Shown: piece after piece, positions 50,518 to 58,025 of the stretch
How the letters are laid out: every line of letters begins with the position of its first letter
Position numbering within the stretch: the first letter of the stretch is position 1
Source: an uncultured virus (IMG/VR IMGVR_UViG_3300027734_000046)
Lineage: Duplodnaviria > Heunggongvirae > Uroviricota > Caudoviricetes
IMG/VR virus record: IMGVR_UViG_3300027734_000046
Coordinates: 62,001 to 120,190 of that record
Reading direction: 5' to 3' (one strand)
Length of the DNA: 58,190 nucleotides
Translations under genes and position numbers: made by a program
The notes under the pieces: model-generated
Told to the model about the DNA's origin: nothing
Database searches by the model: none
What the model saw: only the letters and a program-made list of their open reading frames with translations

Positions 50518-51246
50518 ATGGTTAGCAAAAGAGGACGCAAAAGAAAGAATGAAATGTATTTTGGTCCAGACGAAGAAAATGCCGTTAACGAATACTTAGC
50601 ATCAACTGATGATACCGAAAGAAACTTGATTTACAACAAATGGTTAAAAGAGCCATTGGATAAAATGATAGAATCTATTATTAGAAAATATAAATTATAT
50701 AGAAAGGGTGAAACGTTTGAAGATTTACACAGCGACACCCTTTCATTTCTAATGACAAAAGCACATAAGTTTGAACATGGTAGAGGTAAAAAAGCATATT
50801 CTTACTATGGCACGATATGTAAACATTATATTTTAGGATTATTAATCAAGGATGAAAAGTATATTAAACAAACAGCATCCTATGAAGATATATCTTCCGA
50901 CTTAGAAGAACGTAAAGAGTTAAGCTATGTTATTGATGAAGATGATTTTCAAATGGATGAGTTTTTTAAAAAACTTACAAATGGTATCAAGGATGAATTA
51001 GACGATGAGAACTTACCACCAAAAAAACGATTAACCGAAAATGAAAAAAAAGTAGGTCAATCCCTGATTGAAATATTACAAAATTGGGAAACATCGTTTG
51101 ATGCTATGAGTGGTGGTTCTAAATATAATAAAAACTCCGTACTAGAAACCATGCGAAACTACACCAATCTATCAACCAAAGATATAAGATTGGCTATGAG
51201 AAGATTTAAAGAGTTATACGAATTTTTAAAATTCAAAACCCTGTAA
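50518..51246 (+). CDS. Phage RNA polymerase sigma factor (T4 gp55-like, probably late)
   Basis: Sigma region-2-like FEDLHSDTLSFL...KFEHGRGKKAYSYYGTICKHY; helical C-terminal HTH-like segment; followed by probable structural genes. Confidence 0.7.
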   Translation: MVSKRGRKRKNEMYFGPDEENAVNEYLASTDDTERNLIYNKWLKEPLDKMIESIIRKYKLYRKGETFEDLHSDTLSFLMTKAHKFEHGRGKKAYSYYGTICKHYILGLLIKDEKYIKQTASYEDISSDLEERKELSYVIDEDDFQMDEFFKKLTNGIKDELDDENLPPKKRLTENEKKVGQSLIEILQNWETSFDAMSGGSKYNKNSVLETMRNYTNLSTKDIRLAMRRFKELYEFLKFKTL

Positions 51247-51294: not shown

Positions 51295-51678
51295 ATGCCA
51301 AGGAAAAAAAAACAAGATGTAAAAGTAAATGACGTTGAAAGCTTAGAGGGTTTAATGCAAGAAACTTACAATGATGCGTGTCTACAAATAAATGATGCTC
51401 AACGAAGCATAAATGAATTAGCATCAAGCGCCACACCACAAGATGTAGACGATTTAACAAAAATAGCTAAAGAAAAAGGTGGTCTTTTAAAGGTAAAAGA
51501 TTCTGCGATTAGAATTAAACTAGAATTAGCAAAACTACAAAGCGATATACTTAAAAATAGAGGCGATGCCGAAACAGCAATTCAAGAAAGAACTGATGGC
51601 AAAGCGTCTTTAAATGATTTTAAATCAATTAGGGAAATGCTTAAAAACGATAAGGATATTGAGAACCAACAAGATTAA
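51295..51678 (+). CDS. Hypothetical coiled-coil protein
   Basis: 127-aa helical ORF. Confidence 0.75.
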   Translation: MPRKKKQDVKVNDVESLEGLMQETYNDACLQINDAQRSINELASSATPQDVDDLTKIAKEKGGLLKVKDSAIRIKLELAKLQSDILKNRGDAETAIQERTDGKASLNDFKSIREMLKNDKDIENQQD

Positions 51679-56613: not shown

Positions 56614-56644
56614 TTTACATTTTTTTATTTTTTATTATATTTAT
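56614..56644 (+). promoter_or_regulatory. Promoter for the zinc-ribbon gene
   Basis: TTTACA-16 nt-TATATT, overlapping ATATTTAT (56637-56644). Confidence 0.5.
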
Positions 56645-56661
56645 TTTATACGTTAACTCAC

Positions 56662-56717
56662 GTATTGGTATCGAGCTATAAGCTTTAGAGTTGTCTAGGC
56701 AACAAAGATATTAGTAC
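56662..56717 (+). ncRNA. Candidate structured 5' leader RNA (three-way junction)
   Basis: P1 GTATTGGTATC/GATATTAGTAC (11 bp, 3 G-U); P2 GAGCT-ata-AGCTT; P3 GTTGT-ctag-GCAAC; locally GC-richer than other intergenic DNA. Confidence 0.5.
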
Positions 56718-56747
56718 ATAATAACAAAAATTAAAAGTTAAAAAAAA

Positions 56748-57590
56748 ATGAAAAGAAGAATCTCTATCGGGGAACCGATATCTAATCCTACAGCACAAAT
56801 CTGTATCAACAAATCCAGACTTAAAGTCTACAACAAAGAAACCTCACCAACTTATTATTTAGAAAAAGGACAAGAGTTTCAAATCGAATTATTCAATCCA
56901 ACAAAAAACACACTTTTAGCAAAAATCCAATTAAATGGAAAAGCTATATCACAAGGTGGTTTGGTGTTAAAGCCTGGCCAACGCGTGTTTTTAGAACGCT
57001 ATTTAGATGTTGCTAAAAAATTCATGTTTGACACATACGAAGTATCAAATACAGAAGAAGTTAAAAAAGCCATCGAAGACAACGGCGATTTTAAAGTTGA
57101 ATTTTATAAAGAATCTAATCCAACCCTTGTATATGGTACGGTAACAACATATAATACAAACAATCGATTTACACTAACTGATAATTTTAATACTACAGCT
57201 CCTAATAATTACCTTAATCTTACTGGTAATATTACAAATACAACTTCGACGTATAGCTCTGGTATTGTAAATTGTAGTAATAGCTTTACTAATAATGTAA
57301 CCAATGATAGCTTTGAACCTATACAACAAAAACCAAGACTTAGAAAAAGCTTAACCAAAAGCATAGAAACTGGTCGTGTTGAAGCTGGAAGTAGTTCAGA
57401 CCAAAAATTTGAATATGTAAACAAAAGTTTTGATTACTACGCATTTCACACCGTAGAATGTAAACTACTACCAATATCACAAAAAATAAATACGGCAGAA
57501 GATATCAACGTAAAAAGATATTGCACAAACTGTGGGACAAAACAAAAACCAGAATTTAAATTTTGTCCTAGCTGCGGAGAAAAATGCTAA
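56748..57590 (+). CDS. Protein with C-terminal double zinc ribbon
   Basis: YCTNCG...FCPSCG at the C-terminus; N-terminal beta domain; T/N-rich linker. Confidence 0.8.
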   Translation: MKRRISIGEPISNPTAQICINKSRLKVYNKETSPTYYLEKGQEFQIELFNPTKNTLLAKIQLNGKAISQGGLVLKPGQRVFLERYLDVAKKFMFDTYEVSNTEEVKKAIEDNGDFKVEFYKESNPTLVYGTVTTYNTNNRFTLTDNFNTTAPNNYLNLTGNITNTTSTYSSGIVNCSNSFTNNVTNDSFEPIQQKPRLRKSLTKSIETGRVEAGSSSDQKFEYVNKSFDYYAFHTVECKLLPISQKINTAEDINVKRYCTNCGTKQKPEFKFCPSCGEKC

Positions 57591-57617
57591 AATAATAACT
57601 AGAGTTAACGTATTAAA

Positions 57618-57640
57618 AAAGCCCAGATTGTCTGGGCTTT
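57618..57640. terminator. Bidirectional intrinsic terminator
   Basis: AAAGCCCAGA-ttg-TCTGGGCTTT between convergent genes, with A/T tails on both sides. Confidence 0.9.
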
Positions 57641-58025
57641 ATTTATTTGGATATCTAATCATTGTATTTCTAAATCTAAAATCTTTATACTTACCAGTAT
57701 TTGAACCAAAACCAAATCGTTTATAGAAGCGTAATAAGCCTGTTTTAGAGCTTTCTGTGTCTTCTGGGGTCAATACACATAATAAACTATATTTATCACA
57801 CAGCGCCGTTATTTCCGTCATCAATGCTGTTCCTAACCCCTGTCTTCTTTGCGCCTTGTCTTTTACCTTGATTGAGGCTACTTCAATTGCATCATTGCCT
57901 TTCAAATATATCCAACAAGCCATACCCAATGCGTCATATTTTTGTATGATACTATCTAATTCTGTTTGAATTTTAAATCTTACATCATCTTCAACAACCT
58001 CTTGTAATATTTGTAATATTTTCAT
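57639..58025 (-). CDS. GNAT-family acetyltransferase
   Basis: IEVASIKV...QRRQGLGTALM (acetyl-CoA motif A)...LLRFYKRFGF. Confidence 0.85.
   Translation of the reverse strand: MKILQILQEVVEDDVRFKIQTELDSIIQKYDALGMACWIYLKGNDAIEVASIKVKDKAQRRQGLGTALMTEITALCDKYSLLCVLTPEDTESSKTGLLRFYKRFGFGSNTGKYKDFRFRNTMIRYPNK

Follow-up and report, generated by a model that had tools for sequence, protein, structure and literature searches.

Why should the predicted message of a single phage gene begin and end with two exactly complementary 12-mers? The question arises in the window analysed here, a stretch of 58,190 nucleotides taken from a linear virus record of 120,190 nt (G000; 34% complete), of which it is the second half. 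A sequence-only reading of this DNA had noted the two 12-mers, one about 7 nt after a predicted -10 box and the other 4 nt before a terminator stem, and had proposed that they close a single-gene mRNA into a loop. Our coordinates agree with both placements, measured on the same predicted elements: the 5' arm opens with the seventh base beyond the predicted -10 box, 942 nt separate the arms, and the window holds no further exact copies. The features of the locus are listed below, with the transcript start and 3' end as predicted positions.

56614-56644, + strand: predicted promoter, sigma70-like, with -35 TTTACA at 56614-56619 and -10 TATATT at 56636-56641
56638-56644, + strand: TATTTAT box, overlapping the predicted -10 box
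56648-56659, + strand: 5' arm, ATACGTTAACTC, first 12 nt of the predicted transcript, with two mutually exclusive partners
56662-56717, + strand: three-way-junction leader, from folds and covariation
56662-56672/56707-56717, + strand: leader helix P1
56673-56677/56681-56685, + strand: leader helix P2
56690-56694/56699-56703, + strand: leader helix P3
56686-56689 and 56704-56706, + strand: leader linkers UAGA and AAA
56736-56741, + strand: AGTTAA at -12 to -7 relative to the AUG, inside the ribosome-binding footprint; second partner for the 5' arm
56748-57590, + strand: lone ORF between the two arms, encoding a 280-aa zinc-ribbon protein
57602-57613, + strand: 3' arm, exact reverse complement of the 5' arm, 11 nt past the stop and 4 nt before the terminator
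57618-57640, + strand: intrinsic-terminator-like hairpin, putative terminator
57639-58025, minus strand: GNAT acetyltransferase gene, convergent on the hairpin at 57618-57640

Complementary ends of a single-gene message

By itself, a 12-nt match is at chance level, because the 120-kb record holds 59 exact 12-nt inverted pairs spaced 300-2500 nt apart. What gives the arm match its significance, as judged by comparing sequences, is its position together with its conservation. We collected 357 homologous loci, of which 338 had usable flanks, and these gave 252 distinct UTRs after duplicates were collapsed; the remaining 19 of the 357 were left out for short flanks or unparsed ORFs. Typed counts omit 13 loci without a pattern fit and three bad fits, and 239 fits underlie the leader and promoter counts. 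Ten loci derive from bacterial and archaeal genome bins and are presumably binned phage contigs.

The sequence-only reading had suggested a search for compensatory changes in homologous loci, and these are present. A closing helix lies within 70 nt of the stop in 164 of the 252 distinct loci, compared with 6/81 in a control window 300 nt further on, and the 164 closed loci use 112 distinct arm pairs; the other 88 of 252 failed this near-stop test. The arms fall into types of unrelated sequence, namely A (GUUAAC core), A2 (GUGAUU), B (ACCUUGU) and B2 (GCCUCGU), plus several single lineages. Based on duplex energy, a 3' arm is found in 67/75 loci of type A, 13/14 of A2, 62/63 of B, 4/4 of B2, 0/54 of type C and 7/26 of the others, and the Lak loci L350-352 have no clear 3' arm. 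Among oppositions in the end helix, G·U outnumbers A·C by 58 to 10, or by 13 to 3 when distinct contexts are counted. In 112/152 loci, the helix begins 5-8 nt past the -10 box, at the expected transcription start, while the 3' arm starts 5-15 nt after the stop in 149 of the 164 closed loci. In full-length folds, the end-helix pairing probability is 1.00 in 28 of 29 arm-bearing loci, the exception being a locus with a misplaced start; two of 36 loci had no predicted start and were not folded.

By these comparisons, the end pairing is a selected RNA pairing that closes a single-gene mRNA, and this part of the proposal made from the window alone is supported. We place the pairing at the RNA level because of the compensatory change, the G·U excess, the helix start at the predicted +1 and the lack of reversed promoters. 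The opposite view, that the arms are DNA sites (targets of an invertase or recombinase, termini of a mobile element or paired protein-binding sites), had been offered as an alternative in the form of paired binding sites or cassette ends. It would draw on the palindromic GTTAAC core of type A and on the gene being a stand-alone unit, as seen from neighbours that change from clade to clade (480 neighbours in 171 clusters). We find it barely credible. G·U is preferred over A·C on the transcribed strand, the promoter and terminator accompany the gene although they lie beyond the arms, and the contact that one clade uses in place of the helix, a kiss between two loops, has no DNA equivalent. Since arm sequences are unrelated from clade to clade, the GTTAAC palindrome is dispensable. 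An invertible or inverted-repeat element was rejected in the same way: a reversed promoter follows the stop in 0/156 loci (assembled contigs), a promoter-like box stands upstream in 231/239, and the arms differ between clades.

Loss of the 3' arm was considered for seven loci that seemed to lack it and rejected. These carry antisense endonuclease insertions of GIY-YIG or LAGLIDADG type after the stop, and they keep the 3' arm beside the terminator, 0.87-1.2 kb downstream. The minus-strand homing-endonuclease genes lie at the 3' end of the gene in L011 (3389-4357), L043 (2299-3267), L050 (2304-3446) and L056 (2391-3413), and the same class of insertion is seen in L058 (2406-3221), L071 (2338-3159) and L077 (2361-3176). 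By Pfam, the endonuclease is GIY-YIG in L011 and LAGLIDADG in L058; in L050 it is GIY-YIG-like without a Pfam match. The inserted genes bring a new zinc-ribbon tail, and part of the old tail is stranded ahead of the 3' arm. In L044, a GIY-YIG/NUMOD endonuclease gene (560-1474) has captured the promoter, 5' arm, leader and first codons, and the displaced zinc-ribbon gene is preceded by a second copy of the junction leader.

The junction leader and a kissing-loop variant

The leader that follows the 5' arm is conserved as a structure. Across 61 diverse sequences, each of the 21 base pairs shows changes on both of its sides, and 94.2% of cells are paired, compared with about 40% in slid controls; 0/500 shuffles reach this level, a figure that is no formal probability because the sequences are related and the structure was derived from them. 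The junction linkers are near-invariant (UNGA in 231/239 fits, RAA in 230/239). Hairpin-like inserts of 25-40 nt lie between the 5' arm and P1 in L043 (1340-1390), L101 (1385-1420) and L127 (801-850), with both flanks intact.

A covariance model of the leader finds one strong copy per genome, at the zinc-ribbon gene, in G000 and in 5/5 near-complete relatives, as well as a copy at that gene in 3/5 further records. A search for a regulon with this model gave no second strong site in G000 or 10 other records. The model matched 24/30 difficult loci and missed the three Lak loci (L350-352) and three others; its reach is limited, since Lak-A1 and LR756502 were missed. Rfam gave no gathering-level match in the window, and at a relaxed threshold it gave terminator-driven matches in the 3' part only, leaving the leader uncovered.

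Type C, which has no 3' arm, shows a different contact between its ends. In 53/54 loci, the 6-nt loops of P3 (UCACGG) and of the terminator (CCGUGA) are complementary, with both stems varying; among A, A2 and B loci in which a terminator was detected, 2/127 show such loop complementarity. Because the loops never vary within C, support for this kiss comes from their invariance and from the sister group, type D. There, inspection by eye shows a UCACGAG loop that can pair with CUCGUGA of the 3' UTR in L157 and L168 but not in L176; types C and D cluster together in the tree (SH-aLRT 87). On this comparative evidence, type C substitutes a kiss between leader loop and terminator loop for the end helix. 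Complementarity between P3 and the terminator outside C and D was discounted as sporadic and AU-rich. In L345, L350, L351, L343 and L328, the P3 arm or loop is complementary over 5-8 nt to the 5' strand of the locus's own terminator, and these matches are possibly closure or antitermination variants.

Helix and kiss are two chemistries that both carry the 3' end to the junction. Such closure could place the stop beside the leader, so that ribosomes re-initiate on the same message or the new protein, with its zinc ribbon made last, binds its own leader. The position of the 3' arm, 5-15 nt past the stop in 149/164 loci, would suit recycling or delivery in cis of this kind, although a short distance is expected anyway because short 3' UTRs are usual. 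The endonuclease-bearing loci, which hold the arm 0.87-1.2 kb from the stop, argue against it, though these insertions may be recent. We regard this explanation as rather improbable.

Closure might also serve processing, with the helix leading to cleavage and ligation into a circular RNA or with the junction itself acting as a ribozyme. The end-to-end geometry would allow this, and the order of the helices is hammerhead-like. The hammerhead core is CUGANGA and GAAA with an NUH cleavage site. That core is missing here, where the linkers are UNGA and RAA, and there is no Rfam match to the leader; a hammerhead ribozyme was therefore rejected. Processing in general is highly improbable, given that the helix sequence differs between clades and that types C and D have no ligatable ends.

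A second partner for the 5' arm and a proposed switch

Besides the 3' arm, the 5' arm can pair with the initiation region. In the window, 56653-56658 and 56736-56741 form a 6-bp initiation helix that excludes the 12-bp helix with the 3' arm. The start motif AGUUAA is found in 73/75 type-A loci, compared with 2/212 flanking genes and 3/104 ORFs of G000. Type B (n = 63) has [UA]AAGG in 59 loci and ACAAG in four; AAGG occurs in merely 7/209 flanking genes, so its presence in type B is not ordinary Shine-Dalgarno use. The motif is ACGAG in type B2 (4/4) and UAAAA[UG]U in type C (54/54, compared with 2/112 flanking genes), the latter a pattern that also lies within the type-A motif. It is placed at -12 to -9 in type A and at -9 to -6 in type B, 15-20 nt beyond P1, and the partner spans 5-8 bp across loci.

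The start motif varies in step with the 5' arm across clades, and matched changes are seen in the single lineages L324, L338, L354 and L013. L013 has an 11-bp initiation helix without a 3' arm, and the helix is likewise kept in type C, also without a 3' arm. In an all-against-all test of 35 hand-picked representatives, pairing between cognate arms and start regions gave z -7.5 (0/20,000 permutations), and 16 automatically picked representatives gave z -4.3 (3/20,000); the representatives are partly interdependent, and L349, L350, L352 and L339 fit poorly. Controls that paired the start region with the untranscribed promoter spacer, or the arm with two coding windows, were null (z -1.1 to +1.0). 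Comparative evidence shows that the 5' arm has a second, mutually exclusive partner at the ribosome-binding position. In type D (L157, L168 and L176), the leader opens with a small hairpin, and complementarity between its loop and the start motif would make the initiation helix a pseudoknot.

Bacterial and phage mRNAs are usually translated during their synthesis. Our preferred reading, to which we give a probability of about 0.45, is that the locus encodes a cis-regulatory RNA spanning both mRNA ends, in which an early helix between 5' arm and start region masks initiation, the 3' arm displaces that helix, and complete messages are thereby licensed. In nascent or 3'-truncated RNA, the 5' arm would fold onto the initiation region and dampen translation. 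This masking helix is marginal and probably depends on the junction together with a bound factor; the simplest candidate is the encoded zinc-ribbon protein, whose binding as an autorepressor we put forward as a proposal. Once the terminator is reached, the 3' arm would capture the 5' arm in a far stronger helix, and this capture would release the start region and bury the 5' end. Intact messages would therefore be translated and would probably also be more stable. In type C, the kiss between the P3 and terminator loops would supply the end-to-end signal instead; the 5' arm gains no 3' partner in types C and D, and the model does not account for closure-driven release there.

Nearest-neighbour folding fails to reproduce the switch. 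In the window, the energy cost of forming the initiation helix is about +0.8 kcal/mol, a figure obtained by subtracting two evaluations that both contain the same invalid loop term, and the helix has a probability of 0.26 in nascent RNA (range 0.00-0.89 over 29 loci). At full length, 29/29 loci with a 3' arm give probability 0.00 for pairing of the 5' arm with the start region, and these folds predict no other conserved strand that would mask it. From nascent to full length, accessibility of positions -14 to -5 rises in 16 of the 29 loci, falls in 12 and is equal in one; in L004, the twin of the window, it drops from 0.76 to 0.63.

The little change that folding predicts in start-region access would suit a role in stability instead, in which the 5' end is always paired, with a weak local placeholder and then with the 3' arm, as protection against 5'-end-dependent and endonucleolytic decay. 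Translation would be little affected, and the junction would be a separate protein site. The end helix, whose stability greatly exceeds that of the initiation helix, begins at the predicted +1, and in Bacillus subtilis a 14-bp 5'/3' pairing in hbs restricts RNase Y cleavage (PMC5737220). However, a placeholder needs no fixed site in the ribosome footprint, and the type-C kiss leaves the 5' end uncovered. We consider stabilization alone unlikely, if well within reach.

As a further alternative to licensing, the leader could be a riboswitch, with an aptamer for a small molecule or ion and the 5'-arm/initiation helix as its expression platform. The near-invariant UNGA and RAA linkers across very different phages and the marginal helix over the start region would fit such a device. 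The leader is, however, tied to one gene family and present once per genome, which suits a cognate protein better than a metabolite, and it has no Rfam riboswitch match. A riboswitch is thus very unlikely.

To our knowledge, tested communication between 5' and 3' ends is confined to a few cases, namely hbs, icaR and the type I toxin mRNAs. The closest geometry is that of hbs, a single-gene mRNA whose 5' UTR forms a perfect helix of 12-14 bp with a strand immediately ahead of the terminator, and the phage locus likewise has a complementary 5'-UTR strand and a strand just before the terminator. In hbs, the 5' strand follows a hairpin within the leader and modulates cutting by RNase Y (Braun, Durand and Condon 2017, PMC5737220), whereas the phage arm sits at the very 5' end of the predicted transcript, can pair with a rival strand in the start region, flanks a three-way junction and gives way to a kiss in one clade. 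In icaR of Staphylococcus aureus, the 3' UTR pairs directly with the Shine-Dalgarno sequence and represses (Ruiz de los Mozos et al. 2013, PMC3868564). The likeness is that base pairing by a 3' UTR controls how translation starts on its own mRNA, which for the phage is our proposal. Repression of the icaR type was rejected, in that the phage 3' arm reads in the same sense as the motif at the start region; its partner is the 5' arm, not the Shine-Dalgarno sequence. Because the 3' arm pairs with the masking strand, the predicted sign is opposite to that of icaR.

Type I toxin mRNAs such as hok and aapA had served the sequence-only reading as its model, and this analogy holds in part. The folding agrees: long-distance 5'-3' pairing is present in the full-length phage mRNA, in folds and by comparison, and in Helicobacter pylori aapA3 weak co-transcriptional helices that mask the ribosome-binding site yield to a 5'-3' interaction, with covariation in both states (Masachis et al. 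2019, PMC6733600). In each case, a metastable start-region helix would be replaced by 5'-3' pairing. The outcome and the product do not agree. The full-length closed aapA3 RNA is translationally inert and is activated by 3' trimming (PMC6733600), whereas phage closure would remove the masking strand from the start region, a predicted effect of opposite sign, and the phage element has a 280-aa zinc-ribbon product and a conserved junction leader. Sequestration of the ribosome-binding site at full length, as in type I mRNAs, was rejected, since the 5' arm is predicted to leave the start region in the folds and the closed state appears to free it. A type I toxin-antitoxin mRNA was also rejected, because the ORF encodes 280 aa with a zinc ribbon and has thousands of soluble-looking phage homologues, and is not a small hydrophobic peptide. 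As a candidate source of an antisense antitoxin RNA, the minus strand has one promoter-like site (56882-56854); such sites are no commoner than in shuffles, and most codons there vary freely.

Phages also have autogenous operators and zinc-finger RNA regulators, among them the T4 gene 32 and 43 operators and Mu Com/mom. The element resembles these in its structured leader tied to one gene, its start-region helix and its small four-cysteine zinc module, and we know of no 3'-end partner in the T4 operators or Mu Com/mom.

Judged from its conservation, the element is a real, strongly conserved and uncatalogued phage RNA, and a variant of known 5'/3' end communication. Our literature search, which did not extend to subscription journals or the supplementary motif catalogues of phage RNA surveys, found no paper on it. 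A fuller description, which we offer tentatively and hold more doubtful than licensing as such, is of a switch with a protein- or ligand-binding junction and a competing strand about 1 kb off at the other mRNA end, silent until the terminator, shared by a very large clade of huge phages and built with either helix or kiss. If true, closed-loop translation would have a bacterial-type counterpart here, with a logic inverted relative to type I toxin mRNAs. Hundreds of natural variants, in which 5' arm, start-region partner and 3' arm change in concert and one clade kisses instead, offer ready compensatory mutants for asking whether a prokaryotic message checks its own completeness before translation. 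Should the switch prove to work in a reporter, it would serve as a compact module for coupling translation to transcription termination. The element also flags a widespread, uncharacterised gene of huge phages, Lak phages included, as tightly regulated.

The zinc-ribbon gene and its setting

The 280-aa protein consists of a conserved N-terminal domain, a variable T/N/S-rich linker, an ETGRVExGS motif and a C-terminal CxxC-x10-CxxC zinc ribbon at about 57519-57581, which scores 24.4 bits with Pfam Zn_Ribbon_1, just below the cut-off of 25. Its family is large, with 3565 homologues and 4345 representatives at 50% identity. Among named phages, tblastn matched 15 Lak phage records and seven uncultured huge-phage records. 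We found no annotated homologue in the phages or plasmids searched, no match in PHROGs or PADLOC, nothing but zinc-ribbon matches in NCBIfam and Pfam, and just weak zinc-finger matches among PDB sequences (E 0.29 or worse). In the Atlas, the protein falls in unnamed viral clusters only. DUF7918 (PF25534) was a low-scoring lead there (0.77, 10% of cluster members), and its Pfam profile matched none of 33 cluster members and nothing in G000, where the control matched nothing either. A longer, fused form of the protein was absent among 8000 scored candidates, which is weak evidence, and shorter family matches are probably mostly cut-off fragments. Synonymous sites of the ORF vary freely, and a search of the coding region for hidden RNA constraint found none that stands out. 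The gene is absent from the extracted passages of PMC9723584 and PMC13573597.

The TATTTAT box is probably a phage late promoter, judging from its distribution: it lies within 70 nt upstream of 22/104 ORFs of G000, many of them in the structural region. Further examples stand upstream of the ORFs at window positions 51295 and 54852. Among the homologous loci (n = 239), 231 have a -10-like box, 176 have TA[TC]TTAT and 159 have TT[GT]AC; GATATATA replaces TATTTAT in some type-B loci (11/239). The promoter scan gave 18 sites compared with 21.1 in shuffles, i.e., no excess. The hairpin at 57618-57640 probably works as a bidirectional terminator, with the convergent minus-strand GNAT gene ending at 57639.

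Neighbouring genes in the window include a baseplate-type gene and a sigma-70 region-2 protein. The latter, a 242-aa protein at window positions 50518-51246, could be a phage sigma factor; its match to sigma-70 region 2 is weak (E 1.3e-4) and falls short of the cut-off. The A-rich start regions and the Lak relatives suggest a host in the Bacteroidota. Since bS21 is present in just 1/5 related records, we did not place the phage among the bS21 clades.

One distant homologue, L377 (G012; leader 934-1035, gene 1000-1818), shares 22% identity and the same architecture (hhalign probability 98%). It has a different, multi-hairpin leader without an Rfam match, and the 5' end of that leader folds onto the Shine-Dalgarno sequence (one sequence, z -2.3). 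An antisense endonuclease-like ORF follows its terminator.
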